Origin: a phage
Length of the DNA: 64,000 nt
Sequence record: PZ452595.1
Reading direction: 5' to 3' (one strand)
Positions 22,021-64,000 of the stretch are shown here, in pieces. The notes below the pieces were generated by a model. That model was not told the origin of the DNA. It did no database searches and saw only the letters and a list, made by a program, of their open reading frames with translations. The first letter of the stretch is position 1. Every line of letters begins with the position of its first letter. Made by a program: the position numbers and the translations under genes.

Positions 22021-22028
22021 TATTTATA
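22021..22028 (-). promoter_or_regulatory. late promoter for soc
   Basis: Minus strand TATAAATA ~30 nt upstream of soc ATG. Confidence 0.6.
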
Positions 22029-22073: not shown

Positions 22074-22592
22074 TTAATAGCCTCGATCTTGACGTGCGAA
22101 ATTTTCGGCATTTTTCAGATAATAAAGTTTAAAGATTTCCTCAGCTGACATTCCAAGAGCAATAAATTTATTCATAAAAAAGTGAAATTGGTCAATCAGT
22201 TCAAATTTAATTTCAAGCTGATCTTCAGGAGATAAGTCTTGAATTTTCTTGGATTGCATTTCAGAATAACGTTTCTTCCAAGGTTTCCATACGGCAGAAG
22301 CTTCTTTTTCACCATTACTCATACCACCAAGAGAAGTATATAGCTCGCGAGTTTCATCTGCGATATAATCGTCTTGGTTTCGCAGCCAAGCAAGAACTTC
22401 TCCTGCGGTTTCAAGTGAATCAGGATGACGATTTGTTTCTGGCTTATCATTAGCCAAACGAATCTGTAAAGACCGCTGCATATCAAGCATAACCTGCAAT
22501 GGGTCTTTTTCATCACCGAGAATATCCCAGTATTCATTTTGAGCTTTATCAACACCTTCGATCAAATGAGCGCATTCATTAAAGTGAGCCAT
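22074..22592 (-). CDS. 56: gp56 dCTPase/dUTPase
   Basis: 172 aa from MAHFNECAHLIEG; track ORF has spurious GTG-initiated extension. Confidence 0.85.
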   Translation of the reverse strand: MAHFNECAHLIEGVDKAQNEYWDILGDEKDPLQVMLDMQRSLQIRLANDKPETNRHPDSLETAGEVLAWLRNQDDYIADETRELYTSLGGMSNGEKEASAVWKPWKKRYSEMQSKKIQDLSPEDQLEIKFELIDQFHFFMNKFIALGMSAEEIFKLYYLKNAENFARQDRGY

Positions 22593-22617
22593 TATTTTTC
22601 CTTTCAATTCATGGGTT

Positions 22618-22641
22618 AGTAGATTAATTATACAATAAATA
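22618..22641 (-). promoter_or_regulatory. MotA-box middle promoter upstream of gene 56
   Basis: TGCTTTA - 11 nt - TATAAT. Confidence 0.5.
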
Positions 22642-22663
22642 TATAAAGCAATAAGGAGGACAT

Positions 22664-22864
22664 ATGGTACAAAAATTAATGGCACTTGTTGATGCCATAA
22701 AAGGTAATAAGAAACGTATAGCTTTTACTATTTCTGCTATGGTAGGAATTTTACTCTGGAACTTTATTCTATCACCTGTTGCGATTGCACATGGTATTAA
22801 TATTCCAGTAGTTACTCTTGATACATTCGTAGATTTAGCATTTGCTTTAGTTGGGTTAATTTAA
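22664..22864 (+). CDS. small predicted membrane protein (66 aa), plus strand
   Basis: Perfect SD AAGGAGGA 6 nt before ATG; hydrophobic core; convergent with gene 61 (stop codons overlap). Confidence 0.5.
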   Translation: MVQKLMALVDAIKGNKKRIAFTISAMVGILLWNFILSPVAIAHGINIPVVTLDTFVDLAFALVGLI

Positions 22865-23889
22865 ATCTTGGCATATTTAGATAGCCGCATTTTAGCCATC
22901 AACCCCTGGGCAATATTATTTTTCATATATTCCATAATTTGTTCAGTGGTTGCACCTTCCTTTCTAATCATATCATTAACATCTTTTGATTTCCAGGGAG
23001 ATTTATCCCAAAACATAACCCTTTCTCCTGCATCAACTAATTTAGTCATTCGCTTAATAGTGTCAGGATGACGAGGTTCATTATCTAAAACCCACACACG
23101 TCTATCTTTAAATGGAACAACTTCTAGGTCTAATTGACCACCCGTAATAGCTATACCATTTTCAATAAAAAGTGAATCTATAGGTCCTTCTAGAACATAT
23201 ACATCACCATCTTTAACTCGTTCTACTCCATAGATTTTTGTTGCCTCAGGATAAGCTTTGATGGTGATATATTTTTGAGGAGCATCTTTCTTTAATGCAC
23301 GTCCTTGAAAAGACTCAGCTTTTCCATTAGCATTATAAATTGGAATAACAAGACGAGGCTCAGAAATTTCCTTTTTATATGTTCCCGGTGCTATACTATT
23401 AACTAATTTAGGCCATTCGGTTGTAAACCAAAGATATTTCCATTTATCCTTTGGAATACAACGAGCTTTTACGTATTTTATAATTGGATGGTCTTCCGCC
23501 AGTTTATCTAATCTAACACATGACGGAAGAGATTTAATTATTTTCTTTTCAGGTTGTTTAGGAAGTTCTTTAAGTTTTTCTACTGGACGGCTTTTACCTT
23601 TTTCTTTTCTTATTTCAAAGATATACTCACGATATAAATCAGGTTCAAACTCCTTTAAATATATTCCGATTGGTGCATGATAGTTACAGTTATAACAATG
23701 AATATTTCCTTCATTATTATCACCATAATACCATCCACGAGCTTTATTTTGGTCGGTTTTTGAATCTCCACAAACAGGGCATCTAAACCGTAATTTAAAA
23801 GTTGAACTATTATTTACTTGTGTGAATTTAGGTAAATGGGCTAATGCACGGTATGCAAACTCATTATCAATCCAAGGTATTGATGACAT
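22861..23889 (-). CDS. 61: gp61 DNA primase
   Basis: 342 aa as T4 gp61; zinc ribbon CPVCGDS...CYNC. Confidence 0.9.
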   Translation of the reverse strand: MSSIPWIDNEFAYRALAHLPKFTQVNNSSTFKLRFRCPVCGDSKTDQNKARGWYYGDNNEGNIHCYNCNYHAPIGIYLKEFEPDLYREYIFEIRKEKGKSRPVEKLKELPKQPEKKIIKSLPSCVRLDKLAEDHPIIKYVKARCIPKDKWKYLWFTTEWPKLVNSIAPGTYKKEISEPRLVIPIYNANGKAESFQGRALKKDAPQKYITIKAYPEATKIYGVERVKDGDVYVLEGPIDSLFIENGIAITGGQLDLEVVPFKDRRVWVLDNEPRHPDTIKRMTKLVDAGERVMFWDKSPWKSKDVNDMIRKEGATTEQIMEYMKNNIAQGLMAKMRLSKYAKI

Positions 23890-23891
23890 TT

Positions 23892-24056
23892 TTACTCTTC
23901 TTTTTCTTTAGATTCCTCTTTTTTCTTTTTAGGAATCTGTTCAGGACCTTTATTTACTACAGCGCCTGATGTTGTTCCAGTAGAGATATTTTCAGGATTA
24001 CCACCTGAATCTCCAGCGACCATATCTTCTTTGATAAATTCTTTATATGTTTTCAT
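23892..24056 (-). CDS. small acidic/lysine-rich protein (~54 aa)
   Basis: Hand-translated MKTYKEFIKEDMVAGDSGGNPEN...; ends 2 nt before gene 61 ATG. Confidence 0.45.
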   Translation of the reverse strand: MKTYKEFIKEDMVAGDSGGNPENISTGTTSGAVVNKGPEQIPKKKKEESKEKEE

Positions 24057-24057
24057 A

Positions 24058-24684
24058 TTAACCTCTATTCATAAAAGCATTAAAAATTTGGTCATCAATA
24101 GAAACATTTACTTTAGACTGTTTTTCAGATGGCAATTCATATCCACATATTACAATTTTATGATCAATATCAAAATACACAGAAGCAATATGATTAATGA
24201 TATTTTCAGTGAAGTCTAAATCAACATCAATGTCTTTTTGACCAAAGCCCAAAGGATAAATAATGCGAGTAATTCGATTATCTTTAACAAAGATTCCACC
24301 GACATACTCTGTGCTGCGTTTAAAGTCTACACGCCGACGAAATGAAAAATATTCAGGCTCTTTATGAGCTCGGCTCATAGGGCACAACGAATAACTAGAA
24401 TAAGAGATGTCAAATCCTACGCCTTCAATATGAACTAAATTGTCATGATTAAACCAATTATAATCGTATGCCAAGTCCATTAGATTGTCATATGTGAAAG
24501 GCACCGGATTAACATCATTGGTCACAAGCATATAATTAGCAACTGCTATAATTTCATTATTTTTAACGAATACAAACCGTGATTGATGCGAATGGCCTGG
24601 ACCTGCGTTTTCACGATTAATGATATAACACTGGGCACCTTTATATGTGTACGTGTCTTTACACTTGTGCATTTGATAAAGCAT
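24058..24684 (-). CDS. hypothetical protein (208 aa) at the T4 61.2 position; candidate AdfA (anti-DarT)
   Basis: Position between 61 and sp; assignment from memory of T4 61.2, not verified. Confidence 0.55.
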   Translation of the reverse strand: MLYQMHKCKDTYTYKGAQCYIINRENAGPGHSHQSRFVFVKNNEIIAVANYMLVTNDVNPVPFTYDNLMDLAYDYNWFNHDNLVHIEGVGFDISYSSYSLCPMSRAHKEPEYFSFRRRVDFKRSTEYVGGIFVKDNRITRIIYPLGFGQKDIDVDLDFTENIINHIASVYFDIDHKIVICGYELPSEKQSKVNVSIDDQIFNAFMNRG

Positions 24685-24977
24685 TATTCACCTACCACTT
24701 CAGCGATGATATTTTTATTATTAAAGTTTTTATCACAATACAGAACATAATTATACTGCATTACACCACCAGACTTAAGCTGTTTTTGCACTTCAGCTTT
24801 CATTTCAGGGCGATCGCGCTCAACGATATTCATAATATCTGCTTCAATTTGAGTTTCAACCTCAGTCTGATCTGCCGTCATAGACCATTCGCACAAATCT
24901 TTATCATAACCTGCCATAGCAGGCTGAGCAGCACAAGAAGCTAAAGCAAAAATTGTAGCAAAGATAAATTTTTTCAT
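24684..24977 (-). CDS. sp: Sp (spackle), periplasmic superinfection-exclusion protein
   Basis: 97 aa with signal peptide MKKFIFATIFALASCAAQPAMA as T4 Sp. Confidence 0.85.
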   Translation of the reverse strand: MKKFIFATIFALASCAAQPAMAGYDKDLCEWSMTADQTEVETQIEADIMNIVERDRPEMKAEVQKQLKSGGVMQYNYVLYCDKNFNNKNIIAEVVGE

Positions 24978-25037
24978 GATAATCTCCTCAGTAGTTTATG
25001 TTTATATAGTATCTCAATTTCCAACAAAAGTAAACAG

Positions 25038-25295
25038 TTATTTTAAAATTTCTGCGTAATCACATGTTACAAACTGTTTCTCTAGCTTAACGATCTTACG
25101 AAAATACCTTTTACACTGACGAATCTGTCGCTTCGTAGGACGTACAGCAAACTTAATAAATTCCACTCGACCAAATGGAGGACTTTCTTCTGCTGGAATA
25201 TCTAACACCAATTCCCACGTATCTGCAATAAGTGCTTTAAATTGTGTATTTTTCCTGACGTTATACGGAGTAGGTTTAAATAAAACAATATGCAT
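25038..25295 (-). CDS. small basic protein (~85 aa) at the T4 61.4 position; candidate TifA
   Basis: ATG with GAGGA SD ending 1 nt before dmd stop; Arg/Lys-rich; assignment by synteny only. Confidence 0.5.
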   Translation of the reverse strand: MHIVLFKPTPYNVRKNTQFKALIADTWELVLDIPAEESPPFGRVEFIKFAVRPTKRQIRQCKRYFRKIVKLEKQFVTCDYAEILK

Positions 25296-25296
25296 A

Positions 25297-25479
25297 TTAT
25301 CCTCGGCAATCCACTTCACATACTTTCTTGTCATCAATGAAAGCTTTAACTAATGCTTTATTAACTTCAGCATACTGAGTAGTAGCCCATTGAACGTCAT
25401 CTTTCATCATTGTGGTTTCTTTAGTAAACATGCTTTCATTCTTAAACCACCCCATAAAAACTACCTTTACCAATTCCAT
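25297..25479 (-). CDS. dmd: Dmd, antitoxin against RnlA/LsoA
   Basis: 60 aa as T4 Dmd; early promoter 25509-25538. Confidence 0.85.
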   Translation of the reverse strand: MELVKVVFMGWFKNESMFTKETTMMKDDVQWATTQYAEVNKALVKAFIDDKKVCEVDCRG

Positions 25480-25508
25480 AACAATCTCCTCATTTAACCA
25501 ACAAGACT

Positions 25509-25538
25509 ACTATACCATAGTCTCGTCAGCTTGTAAAC
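25509..25538 (-). promoter_or_regulatory. T4-type early promoter upstream of dmd
   Basis: GTTTACA - 17 nt - TATAGT. Confidence 0.6.
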
Positions 25539-26965
25539 TAAAATTTTAATTCATTCGCCAAAGCATCTAACTGAGCTCGAGTGGATTCATTTCTTTGATA
25601 GCGATTCTGCTCAGCCTGAATCTGTTGTGAACCTGCTACTTCGTTCACTTCAGTTGGAGTAGAATCTTGTTCAATTTCTACCCATTTCTGATTTCCCTTT
25701 TGAACACCCATCAAAAACTTATTCCACTTATTCTTATCACCATATCGTGATTTGATTTGCTTAATGAGTTGTTGTTCAGCAGCTGCTAGCTCCTCGGTTT
25801 CAATGACCGCAAGCATAAAATCAGCTGTCGCTGGAAGACCAGCAGATTCTGCGATATCACTCATGTTAACATCAGAAGAATCCCAAGCTTGTTTGCCGAC
25901 CTGCGCTGCAGTCCAAAGAACAGTTTCGGTTTCAACAGCCAAAGCACGCAATTCCTCTGCAATAGCTTTAACAGTTGTGTAACTATTTTCTGAATAAACT
26001 CTAATACGGCAAGATTTACAAATACCAAGATAGTCGACAATAATGATTGTTGGAACAAAATTCTTCTTGAGCTTCAATTCGTTTAAAAGTGATCGAAATG
26101 TATTAGCATCTGCTCCACCAGTAGGATACTGTTTAACGATTAAACGCCCGAGAGTAGATTTCTCGCGCCATTTTTCCATTTTTCCTTTATACTCAGCGTA
26201 AGAAATATGCCCATCATCAATATCATCAAGAGAAACATCAAGCATATTAGCATCAATACGCTTAGCACAGACTTCTTCTGCCATTTCCATGGAAATGTAA
26301 AGAACGTTATGACCAAGCTGCAAATAATCTGCTGCCAATGAACACAATCCTAATGACTTACCAACGTTAACGCCAGCCATTAAAACGTTCAGTGTTCCAG
26401 TCTCAGCTCCGCCTTTAGTAATTTTGTTTAGAATTCTGAGTTTAAATGGAACCTTACGAGCTTTATTCATATAAGATAGCCAACGTGCTTCGTAGTCATC
26501 CATCCAGTCATGACCAACGTAGCTATCAAATGAAATTGATAATGCTTGCCGCATAATGTCAGGAATAGCACCAACATCCGGCATTTTCTTATTTCGTTTT
26601 TCCGGAGGAAGCTCAGCATTAGTTTGAATTTCGATTATTTTAGATGTAGCATTAAACATCGCCCTTTGCTGAACATATTTTTCTGTTTCTTTTACTAACC
26701 AGCTGTGGTCTTCCGGAGAATCAGCCAGTTTTGAAATAAGTGTTTTTACACCAGAATATTCTGTTTCAGTAAATGAACTATTTTCTAATGCAACATTTAA
26801 CGCATTAATAGATGGAACGCTATGATACTCATTGACATGAGATTTAATTAATTTGAATGTATTTTTAGCTGGACCACTTTCAAAATATTCTGAATCCATA
26901 TATGGCCAAACTTTTGAAAAATAAGCTTGATCAAATATGAGATGAGAAAGAATAATTTCTACCAC
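25538..26965 (-). CDS. 41: gp41 replicative DNA helicase
   Basis: 475 aa as T4 gp41; Walker A GVNVGKS. Confidence 0.9.
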   Translation of the reverse strand: MVEIILSHLIFDQAYFSKVWPYMDSEYFESGPAKNTFKLIKSHVNEYHSVPSINALNVALENSSFTETEYSGVKTLISKLADSPEDHSWLVKETEKYVQQRAMFNATSKIIEIQTNAELPPEKRNKKMPDVGAIPDIMRQALSISFDSYVGHDWMDDYEARWLSYMNKARKVPFKLRILNKITKGGAETGTLNVLMAGVNVGKSLGLCSLAADYLQLGHNVLYISMEMAEEVCAKRIDANMLDVSLDDIDDGHISYAEYKGKMEKWREKSTLGRLIVKQYPTGGADANTFRSLLNELKLKKNFVPTIIIVDYLGICKSCRIRVYSENSYTTVKAIAEELRALAVETETVLWTAAQVGKQAWDSSDVNMSDIAESAGLPATADFMLAVIETEELAAAEQQLIKQIKSRYGDKNKWNKFLMGVQKGNQKWVEIEQDSTPTEVNEVAGSQQIQAEQNRYQRNESTRAQLDALANELKF

Positions 26966-26974
26966 ACTTACTCC

Positions 26975-27337
26975 TTAAAAGAATTTAAATTTTTTCTTTG
27001 ACCTTTTATTAAATGCATCTTGTAGTTGCATTGTAATACATTTTTCTACATGAGGAGCTAACTCAGCTTTTCTTTCTTGGTCAAGAACAGCAAAGTCCAT
27101 TACAACCTTTCCATCAACCCAATCCAGTTTAGTTACATACACTATATGTGTAGAACCATCTTCTAGTTTAATGACAATCTCCTGGATAACATTTTCCATA
27201 GCAGATTTAATTATCTTAAGAGACTCATTAAAAAGACGTTCTTTTCTTTCTTCTTCCCCCTCCGAAGAGGGGGATTCATCGATAATTTCTAGATCTAAAT
27301 CTAAATCATCTTTATTCATTAAATTCTTCCATATCAC
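26975..27337 (-). CDS. 40: gp40-like protein (120 aa)
   Basis: Position between uvsX and 41 as T4 gene 40; acidic N-terminus. Confidence 0.65.
   Translation of the reverse strand: MIWKNLMNKDDLDLDLEIIDESPSSEGEEERKERLFNESLKIIKSAMENVIQEIVIKLEDGSTHIVYVTKLDWVDGKVVMDFAVLDQERKAELAPHVEKCITMQLQDAFNKRSKKKFKFF
27256..27273 (-). terminator. UUCG-tetraloop hairpin inside gene 40 coding sequence, just 3' of uvsX
   Basis: ccccctccgaagaggggg; 7-bp GC stem within codons ESPSSEGEE. Confidence 0.45.
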
Positions 27338-63575: not shown

Positions 63576-63745
63576 ATATTAATTTCCAGAAGTTTTAAAA
63601 TAATTCGCTTTTGCTTAAATATTTCCATAGTTAAATGATCAGTATCTTTTTGACCAATTCCAATGGCAAAACCTTTATTAGCAGCGAGTTCAATTAAATT
63701 ATCAAGTTCACGTGACACTTCATATTGTAACTCAGAACTATTCAT
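63572..63745 (-). CDS. small protein (~57 aa)
   Basis: Hand-translated MNSSELQYEVSRELDNLIEL...; ATGA overlaps at both ends. Confidence 0.4.
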   Translation of the reverse strand: MNSSELQYEVSRELDNLIELAANKGFAIGIGQKDTDHLTMEIFKQKRIILKLLEINI

Positions 63746-63954
63746 TTCGGTTTACCTTCTTTAACGAAATCTGGATAAGGATAAAATCCCGAATAAAATC
63801 CTTCACCTTTATGATTGATGCATCCTTTATTAGAACAATAGCACCAATAATCGAAATCACAAGCCATTTCATCGTTGCATAAAGCAAAAACAACTGGCCA
63901 TTTACACTTTTCACAATGGGCATTTTTAAGAATACTAGTTTGGCTCATAACCAT
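63742..63954 (-). CDS. Cys-rich small protein (70 aa)
   Basis: ORF track; CEKCKW...CYCSNKGC; preferred over overlapping frame 63738..63923. Confidence 0.5.
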   Translation of the reverse strand: MVMSQTSILKNAHCEKCKWPVVFALCNDEMACDFDYWCYCSNKGCINHKGEGFYSGFYPYPDFVKEGKPK

Positions 63955-64000
63955 GTAACCTTTAAGCAGTATTCTTCTACATGCTGTTTACGACCTTTCT

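Follow-up and report, generated by a model that had tools for sequence, protein, structure and literature searches.

The interval between primase gene 61 and helicase gene 41 of this phage is almost certainly, to judge by its sequence, a T4-type 61.1-adfA-sp-tifA-dmd locus, three of whose products would inhibit toxin-antitoxin (TA) defences and whose early promoter would lie upstream of dmd-tifA. The reading of this region as an anti-TA island is supported and already known; the region was termed a possible 'anti-TA island', with gene 61.2 as adfA and gene 61.4 as tifA, in 2022 (Srikant et al., eLife 2022, PMC9391042). The island itself thus adds nothing new scientifically, and the modest added value of the analysis is an observation on gp61.1, the product of the small gene beside the primase. 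The comparisons covered sequence identity, family membership, allele residues, gene order and the motifs of promoters and ribosome-binding sites; the activities of the products we infer from published T4 and RB69 experiments on identical or near-identical proteins.

Gene order and orthology with T4

Five minus-strand open reading frames (ORFs) occupy positions 23892-25479, between gene 61 and gene 41, in the 64,000-nt stretch of record PZ452595.1 that was analysed (the window). The features of the locus are as follows:

22861..23889, minus strand: gene 61, DNA primase, left flank; 342 aa, four amino-acid differences from T4 gp61, annotated 61 in T4
23892..24056, minus strand: gene 61.1, no assigned function; 54 aa, 52/54 identical to T4 gp61.1, phrog_1823
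24058..24684, minus strand: adfA (gene 61.2), anti-DarT factor A; 208 aa, 205/208 identical to T4 gp61.2, PF23813
24684..24977, minus strand: sp (gene 61.3), Spackle; 97 aa, 96/97 identical to T4 Sp, PF25676
24978..25037, minus strand: spacer between tifA and sp, containing the ribosome-binding site of sp and a weak promoter-like site
25038..25295, minus strand: tifA (gene 61.4), ToxN inhibitory factor A; 85 aa, 85/85 identical to T4 TifA, PF23945
25297..25479, minus strand: dmd (gene 61.5), antitoxin against RnlA and LsoA; 60 aa, 59/60 identical to T4 Dmd, PF17587
25509..25537, minus strand: sigma-70-type early promoter-like site upstream of dmd-tifA; 10/12 match
25538..26965, minus strand: gene 41, replicative helicase, right flank; no amino-acid difference from T4 gp41 (475/475)

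The order given in the preliminary description (a 54-aa ORF, a 208-aa ORF, sp, an 85-aa ORF and dmd between 61 and 41) agreed with the ORF check in every coordinate. The five genes are closely packed; the stop of sp and the start of adfA share one nucleotide at 24684, and adfA, tifA and dmd all fall inside 1.42 kb.

A 2-kb stretch matched 556 phage records, at 97.9-98.4% identity for T4 and for close relatives, and the locus was ~98% identical to T4 overall. T4 (NC_000866) aligned without gaps over window positions 22700 to 27100, where its annotation reads 61, 61.1, 61.2, sp, 61.4, dmd, 41 and each ORF has the length seen in the window; gene order, strand, overlaps and intergenic spacers were likewise the same, and the early promoter-like site upstream of dmd was kept. 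Protein identity was 96-100%, and the five island proteins together carried seven substitutions (F4Y and I26T in gp61.1; K13T, L62P and P190S in AdfA; K53E in Sp; I22T in Dmd). Divergence at the nucleotide level was mosaic (1-6%), and each of the 42 codon differences in gene 41 was synonymous. To the left of gene 61 the window diverges from T4, and no dam lies beside gene 61. By these likenesses the window is from a T4-like phage (Tequatrovirus), and the locus is orthologous to its T4 counterpart rather than a chance resemblance.

AdfA and TifA

That the gene at the 61.2 position is adfA, as had been proposed from the T4 gene order, was borne out both by the comparison of the 208-aa protein with T4 gp61.2 (205/208) and by a full-length match to the "Anti-DarT factor A" family of Pfam, PF23813 (E=3.2e-136; score 451.9 bits, curated cut-off 27 bits; residues 1-208 on profile positions 1-211). 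T4 gene 61.2 was named adfA, anti-DarT factor A, in PMC9391042, and one GenBank record, that of H46, already labels its homologue 'anti-DarT factor A'. The three substitutions relative to T4 gp61.2 may affect the protein and count against the reading. In the alignment, His165 of the window protein falls opposite Arg164 of RB69 AdfA, which assigns it to the His allele, the DarT1-binding type. The R164H mutation allows RB69 AdfA to bind and neutralise DarT1, and T4 AdfA has His naturally (PMC11257639 / PMC11825919).

T4 AdfA supplied in trans suffices against DarTG1. T4 lacking adfA stays DarTG1-resistant, the operative factor being AdfN (30.3); loss of adfA is without a DarTG1 phenotype even when adfN is absent as well, and the authors suggested another DarT as the target of T4 AdfA (PMC11257639 / PMC11825919). 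Nor was adfA among the hits of the DarTG1 or DarTG2 screens by HIDEN-SEQ (HIDEN-SEQ preprint). Because of these two results, the natural target of T4-type AdfA is unsettled. The window AdfA is of the DarT1-binding type by its His allele, and would probably be redundant against DarTG1 should the phage carry adfN outside the window. The anti-DarTG2 gene tk.4 (adfM) was not found in the window, which ends in the tk.1-tk.3 region, just short of it.

The 85-aa protein had been described as basic (computed pI, 9.8) and assigned by position to TifA; its identity to T4 TifA over all 85 residues confirmed the assignment. It also matched Pfam PF23945, DUF7279 (E=2.3e-20; cut-off 24.5 bits). The 85 residues are counted from the ATG; an upstream TTG start would make the protein 99 aa. 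The gene differs from T4 tifA by 15 nucleotides in 14 codons, all synonymous with no non-synonymous change, which argues for purifying selection on the protein. T4 gene 61.4 was named tifA, ToxN inhibitory factor A, in PMC9391042. The window protein shares the basic residues K55, R56 and R59 with both T4 and RB69 TifA, and K55A R56A R59A served as the RNA-binding-deficient control of RB69 TifA (PMC10853763).

At position 41 the window TifA has Phe, as does wild-type T4, and not the Ser or His of strong inhibitors; F41S or F41H strengthens inhibition of ToxN, the T4-type F41 being the weak allele (PMC10853763). This residue bears on potency, not on membership in TifA. A single copy of T4-type tifA suffices against toxIN on the chromosome but not against toxIN on a plasmid, which restricts wild-type T4, T2 and T6; full plating of T4 on chromosomal toxIN requires native tifA (PMC9391042). 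With a single copy of the F41 allele, the window phage would probably cope with chromosomal toxIN but not with plasmid-level toxIN. No solved structure was found for AdfA or for TifA.

Dmd and Spackle

The 60-aa dmd product, previously recognised as a known antitoxin, proved 59/60 identical both to T4 Dmd, from which it differs by I22T, and to chain B of PDB 5HY3 (E=1e-36), and matched Pfam PF17587 (E=1.8e-45). The T22 allele is common in nature; the phages listed at 60/60 identity include teqsoen and G29. T4 Dmd neutralises RnlA (PMC9391042), and LsoA is named in PMC10760071; on RnlAB-positive K-12, dmd is conditionally essential (HIDEN-SEQ preprint). The window phage is predicted to be resistant to RnlAB and LsoAB.

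Spackle, in which K53E is the single difference from T4 Sp, matched Pfam PF25676 (E=1.3e-44) and PDB 6X6O (E=8e-62, 96/97 identical). The Pfam scores of Spackle and Dmd, like those of AdfA and TifA, exceeded the curated cut-offs. Its N-terminus is a signal peptide; the mature chain of 7CN6 begins at residue 23, after ...AQPAMA. By these matches Spackle is the periplasmic inhibitor of gp5 lysozyme that serves superinfection exclusion, and not an anti-TA factor.

Together, the three small anti-TA proteins would replace labile host antitoxins after infection: Dmd would bind the RNase toxins RnlA and LsoA, TifA together with RNA would bind the type III toxin ToxN and trap it in an inactive ribonucleoprotein, and AdfA would bind the DNA ADP-ribosyltransferase DarT1. 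Spackle, exported to the periplasm, would block the tail lysozyme of superinfecting phages.

Transcription signals

The promoter-like site upstream of dmd consists of TTTACA, a 17-nt spacer and TATAGT, the last preceded by a TG; the dmd-41 spacer differs from that of T4 at 25500 and 25524, both outside the hexamers. The early promoter for tifA has been placed upstream of dmd (PMC9391042). All 60 nt of the tifA-sp spacer are identical to T4, and the spacer holds a weaker promoter-like match (9/12, 25004->24976); a promoter downstream of tifA is mentioned in PMC9391042. A second promoter probably lies upstream of sp. No terminator or structured RNA was found in the tifA-sp spacer, and no stable fold was predicted (z=+1.2).

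The locus as an island

The preliminary description had proposed a ~1.6-kb multi-factor counter-defence island on synteny and size only, and the proposal now has the T4 identities and Pfam matches behind it. Its wording of several anti-TA factors holds for three of the five genes, adfA, tifA and dmd, so that at least two adjacent genes are directed against different TA systems; it does not extend to sp, a superinfection-exclusion gene, or to 61.1, whose product is head-protein-like, and the members are thus not uniformly anti-TA.

In RB69, the 41-61 interval carries 61.1, adfA, sp, tifA and dmd in the same order, with imm and imm.1 between sp and tifA and four further ORFs. AdfA was discovered in RB69, whose protein is 69% identical and bears the non-neutralising Arg164 allele; RB69 TifA, the stronger inhibitor, has His41, is 57% identical and is without the C-terminal 15 residues, and RB69 61.1 is a long form that the reference record divides between two ORFs. 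In CC31, adfA, tifA and dmd are all absent from the same slot, which holds 61.1 and a gene resembling spackle, and T2 has at the adfA position a 118-aa relative of the C-terminal half of AdfA.

We considered whether the clustering is incidental, the 41-61 interval being a hyperplastic slot for any accessory genes, in which tolerated insertions and shared early transcription bring genes together without a selected unit. This is a possible reading, though one we doubt. It is favoured by the variation in slot content among RB69, CC31 and T2, by the differing distribution of the members over the phage collection (1397 records for 61.1, 801 for Dmd, 642 for TifA and 487 for AdfA), and by the fact that Sp and the RB69 imm genes serve superinfection exclusion and not anti-TA functions. 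However, dmd and tifA are adjacent and co-operonic in T2, T4, T6 and RB69 (PMC9391042), three unrelated proteins against three TA types within 1.4 kb exceed what would usually be drawn at random from ~150 accessory genes, and anti-defence genes cluster in other phages too. Like anti-CRISPR and anti-restriction islands, the locus gathers small, unrelated, early-expressed inhibitors of host immunity in a variable slot; unlike them, it is directed at TA systems (types II, III and IV), has no shared regulator such as Aca, and includes genes that are not anti-TA. Given that three of five genes are anti-TA, and given the contents of the RB69 and CC31 slots, 'island' may overstate the functional coherence of the locus.

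It is also conceivable that the alleles are ineffective or retargeted, with AdfA tuned to an unknown DarT homologue and TifA too weak, so that neither would measurably protect the phage from DarTG1 and toxIN, the model systems, and Dmd would be the sole working anti-TA factor. We consider this quite improbable. The missing DarTG1 phenotype of the T4 adfA deletion and the other DarT target suggested by its authors speak for it, as do the restriction of T4, T2 and T6 by plasmid-borne toxIN and the weakness of F41 relative to F41S and F41H; the window TifA is identical to that of T4, and its AdfA has three extra substitutions. Set against these are the sufficiency of T4 AdfA in trans against DarTG1, the need of T4 for native tifA for full plating on chromosomal toxIN, and the purely synonymous divergence of tifA, which argues for active selection on the protein.

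What most GenBank records carry as three "hypothetical proteins" can be annotated as AdfA, TifA and Dmd with confidence, and the allele states AdfA His165, TifA Phe41 and Dmd Thr22 permit host-range prediction for the phage.

gp61.1 resembles internal-protein leaders and gp23

No Pfam family and no corresponding PDB chain were found for gp61.1. Residues 2-38 aligned with residues 57-93 of gp23 (E=1e-8), a segment that includes the prohead-protease cleavage site. The start of the protein, MKTYKEFIKE, also resembles that of T4 IPII/IPIII, MKTYQEFIAE, in the shared pattern MKT(Y/F)xEF..E, with Y4, F7, I8 and E10 identical; in the capsid targeting sequence (CTS), residues 4 and 7 are important for targeting and residues 8 and 10 for processing (PMC9026906). 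Translation of the window in all six frames gave a single occurrence of the CTS motif, and across the 13 loci compared it lies only at the starts of 61.1 and ip genes.

Several features set gp61.1 apart from the T4 internal proteins. Just 44 residues remain beyond the putative cleavage site, and the neighbours of the gene are early replication genes; the late-promoter consensus TATAAATA was found at 22021 and 62605 in the window and nowhere in or near the island, although an early protein could persist. In homologues from other genera, a ~100-aa N-terminal domain replaces the N-terminal CTS. Neither a report of gp61.1 in virions nor a mention of its likeness to gp23 or the CTS was found in the searchable literature.

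We reasoned that gp61.1 might be a fourth CTS-bearing protein, loaded into the prohead core and cut by gp21 after Glu10 to leave a 44-residue peptide that copies the N-terminal arm of gp23*, a proposal that we regard as unlikely on present evidence. The candidate peptide, DMVAGDSGGNPENIS..., would start at Asp11 and would consist of a copy of gp23 residues 66-93 followed by a Lys-rich tail. It could accompany the DNA on injection and act as a first-response factor of counter-defence, in the manner of IPI*, which acts against GmrSD; alternatively, it could be a decoy for host sensors of the major capsid protein, or have a role in head assembly.

Some homologues of 61.1 are labelled 'putative head morphogenesis protein' or 'major capsid'. 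These labels were rejected as support for the gp23 link, the annotation of the T2 record being unreliable: by synteny with the T4 41-61 interval, the gene that this record labels 'major capsid protein' is at the position of helicase gene 41. Mimicry of the Gol peptide, the activator of Lit protease, was considered as well; the Gol core presumably lies downstream of gp23 residue 93 and would then be distinct from the gp61.1-like region.

gp61.1 is small, widely conserved and always encoded beside the primase gene, and it combines an internal-protein targeting sequence with a copy of the gp23 maturation-site region. Were it packaged, the anti-defence cluster of T4 would include the gene for an injected peptide that has so far gone unrecognised.

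Identity of the genes between primase and helicase

The cluster between the gene 61 primase and the gene 41 helicase had been proposed in the preliminary description to be a multi-factor counter-defence island, with its 208-aa and 85-aa ORFs assigned tentatively, by synteny and size, to AdfA (anti-DarTG) and TifA (anti-ToxIN). A six-frame ORF listing confirmed the positions given there for five ORFs, all on the minus strand.

Genes of the island and its flanks, with identical residues and synonymous/non-synonymous codon differences relative to T4
22861-23889: gene 61 primase, flank
23892-24056, minus strand: 61.1, 54 aa; 52/54 (F4Y, I26T); 0/2
24058-24684, minus strand: adfA (61.2), 208 aa; 205/208 (K13T, L62P, P190S); 4/3
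24684-24977, minus strand: sp, 97 aa; 96/97 (K53E); 7/1
25038-25295, minus strand: tifA (61.4), 85 aa from ATG, 99 aa if an upstream TTG is used; 85/85, no change; 14/0 (15/258 nt differ)
25297-25479, minus strand: dmd, 60 aa; 59/60 (I22T); 1/1
25538-26965: gene 41 helicase, flank, followed by genes 40 and uvsX; 475/475, no change; 42/0

The island genes leave little room between them: the stop of sp and the start of adfA share one base, dmd and tifA lie one base apart, as do adfA and 61.1, and the only sizeable spacers measure 60 nt (24978-25037) and 58 nt (25480-25537). Alignment of 22700-27100 with T4 (NC_000866) was gap-free, and the T4 annotation over this stretch (61, 61.1, 61.2, sp, 61.4, dmd, 41) gives ORFs of the same lengths. 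By megablast, 23700-25700 matched 556 phage records, nearly all T4-like phages of Escherichia, Shigella or Yersinia, with a top identity of 98.4% (Yersinia phage fPS-65) and 97.9-98.0% for T4; since the window elsewhere is ~96% identical to various Tequatrovirus members, it represents a mosaic member of the genus, not T4 itself.

Both assignments were borne out. The 208-aa protein, 205/208 identical to T4 gp61.2, matched Pfam PF23813, "Anti-DarT factor A", over its full length (E=3e-136), and the 85-aa protein is T4 gp61.4 residue for residue and matched PF23945 (DUF7279), where Pfam files TifA homologues; solved structural relatives were found for neither. The 60-aa protein matched PF17587 (Dmd) and 59/60 residues of PDB 5HY3 chain B. 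The 97-aa protein matched PF25676 (Spackle) and PDB 6X6O, the mature chain (7CN6) beginning at residue 23, past the signal peptide. By established knowledge and the names of the PDB entries, Spackle travels to the periplasm, where it inhibits the gp5 lysozyme that superinfecting phages bring. With adfA, tifA and dmd, the cluster holds three counter toxin-antitoxin (anti-TA) genes, which supports the proposed island.

The divergence of tifA from T4 is purely synonymous, direct evidence that TifA is under purifying selection. All differences in tifA (15) and gene 41 (42) are silent, and 61.1 and adfA differ at only ~1% of positions; this contrast, together with a 60-nt tifA-sp spacer identical to that of T4, suggests that a boundary of mosaic recombination lies close to the spacer, at about 25000-25040.

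Predicted activities of the anti-TA proteins

This DNA itself gives evidence that the genes are orthologous, keep their reading frames and are under selection, and it shows the diagnostic residues as well as motifs of promoters and ribosome-binding sites; the activities are extended from experimental work on proteins of identical or nearly identical sequence. The three small proteins, made early in infection, would substitute for labile host antitoxins, with Dmd countering RnlA and LsoA, TifA countering ToxN, and AdfA countering DarT1 or a DarT1 relative.

Gene 61.4 was renamed tifA by Srikant, Guegler and Laub (eLife 2022, PMC9391042) after tandem amplification of the dmd-tifA operon had proved to be how T4 escapes plasmid-borne toxIN; ToxN is neutralised by TifA protein, not tifA mRNA, TifA co-precipitates with ToxN, and single-copy native tifA suffices against chromosomal toxIN. 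According to Guegler et al. (NAR 2023, PMC10853763), TifA binds ToxN as well as RNA and sequesters the toxin in a large ribonucleoprotein, and its potency is tuned at position 41, T4 TifA being stronger with F41S or F41H (PMC10853763). The window TifA has Phe41 and retains K55, R56 and R59, a combination that, judged by residue type, makes it the weak but functional T4 allele.

Thr22 of Dmd is an allele common in nature, and identity to the Dmd of the window is 99% or higher in 100 phage records. In a transposon screen (HIDEN-SEQ preprint), dmd was conditionally essential on RnlAB-positive K-12, and 61.1, 61.2 and 61.4 were non-essential on K-12.

AdfA was discovered in RB69, in which the escape change R164H enables DarT1 binding and neutralisation; T4 AdfA naturally has His at the equivalent position and is effective in trans (PMC11257639, PMC11825919). 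His165 of the window AdfA aligns with RB69 Arg164 and is thus of the DarT1-binding allele type. Loss of adfA nevertheless leaves T4 resistant to DarTG1, the main factor being AdfN (gene 30.3; PMC11257639, PMC11825919), and in the HIDEN-SEQ preprint adfN was the only gene required under DarTG1 and tk.4 the only one under DarTG2. The latter gene, recently named adfM, encodes the T4 anti-DarTG2 macrodomain protein; the window ends (63742-64000) in the tk.1-tk.3 region, just short of its expected position.

Regulation of the island

Upstream of dmd (25537->25509, minus strand) is a promoter-like site of the sigma-70 type, consisting of TTTACA, a 17-nt spacer and TATAGT preceded by TG; neither of the two differences from T4 in the 58-nt spacer falls within the hexamers. 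The site fits the early promoter placed upstream of dmd by Srikant et al. (PMC9391042). The tifA-sp spacer gave only a weak promoter-like match and no stable RNA fold. The T4 late-promoter consensus, TATAAATA, is absent from the island and occurs twice in the whole window (22021 and 62605, both minus strand) against ~10 expected from shuffles, a rarity that fits an early or middle gene region.

Variation of the slot among T4-type phages

The content of the 41-61 slot differs between genera: RB69 additionally carries imm, imm.1 and four further ORFs, and CC31 has 61.1 and a spackle-like gene without adfA, tifA or dmd. Homologue records in the phage collection are likewise unequal (61.1, 1397; Dmd, 801; TifA, 642; AdfA, 487). 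The best description is therefore not a fixed module but a slot for accessory genes, where three anti-TA genes have accumulated in T4-type phages.

In T2, said to lack adfA, the adfA position is occupied by a 118-aa ORF (2143-2499 of locus L012) related to the AdfA C-terminal half; it is 34% identical to AdfA residues 109-208, shares the last 14 residues, SIDDQIFNAFMNRG, and corresponds to phrog_4122. Product names in the T2 record (GenBank AP018813.1) are unreliable and should carry no weight as evidence; the gene that synteny places at the helicase 41 position, for example, is called 'major capsid protein', and tifA bears the label 'DNA primase/helicase'.

Resemblance of gp61.1 to gp23 and the internal proteins

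The cluster itself has already been described as the T4 anti-TA island, and its residual novelty lies only in a resemblance of gp61.1. This 54-aa protein, which matched no Pfam family, is the most widely conserved island member; its gene lies directly upstream of gene 61 in every genus checked (T4, T2, RB69, CC31, Klebsiella phage Kpn6N, Acinetobacter phage Ac42 and Aeromonas phage AS4). Residues 2-38 align to residues 57-93 of the major capsid protein gp23 (16/37 identical, pairwise E=1e-8). RB69 and CC31 gp61.1 likewise match their own gp23 (E=5e-6 and 3e-7), and window gp61.1 matches gp23 of Acinetobacter phage 133 (E=6e-11). Against all PDB sequences, gp23 was the top match (E=0.0085) and the only protein below 0.01, the next three matches also being gp23. 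The alignment runs across the maturation site of gp23 (LTE|AEIGGD in gp23, IKE|DMVAGD in gp61.1, LFE|D in RB69 and CC31), and the cleavage-like site keeps Glu with Leu/Ile at the second position before it, a feature shared with the sites at which gp23 and IPII/IPIII are cleaved; the prohead protease gp21 cuts after Glu following a short motif (PMC9026906).

The gp61.1 N-terminus, MKTYKEFIKE, is identical at 8/10 positions to MKTYQEFIAE, the capsid targeting sequence (CTS; PMC8442874) with which the T4 internal proteins IPII and IPIII begin; IPI begins MKTFKEF. The identical positions include residues 4 and 7, critical for targeting, and 8 and 10, critical for processing (PMC9026906). The pattern MKT[YF]xEF has a single occurrence when the 64-kb window is translated in all six frames and, in the 13 loci compared, is confined to the start codons of 61.1, ipI, ipII and ipIII. 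Three observations speak against taking gp61.1 simply for a fourth internal protein: the island has no late-promoter consensus, the searchable literature yields no link of 61.1 to capsid targeting, and homologues from CC31, Ac42 and, with ORFs joined, RB69 bear a ~100-aa N-terminal domain before the cleavage-like site in place of an N-terminal CTS. Nor does the searchable literature mention the CTS/gp23 resemblance. These long forms, of ~150 aa (CC31, L005:2167-2631; Ac42, L009:2183-2635; RB69, L002:1318-1784), have an additional domain that matched no Pfam family; the RB69 reference record splits its copy into two ORFs, one of which, ORF032c, shares 82% identity with residues 1-51 of CC31 gp61.1. 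The resemblance of gp61.1, and with it a possible role as fourth internal protein, is put forward as a lead rather than a finding.

Beyond gene 61, collinearity with T4 was lost left of about 22700, where gene 61 is followed by a gp56 dCTPase-like ORF (22074-22685, minus strand) without an intervening dam gene. A 66-aa hydrophobic ORF on the opposite strand (22664-22864, plus strand) lies between the two, and the corresponding place in T2 and Kpn6N is likewise taken by a small ORF on the opposite strand.
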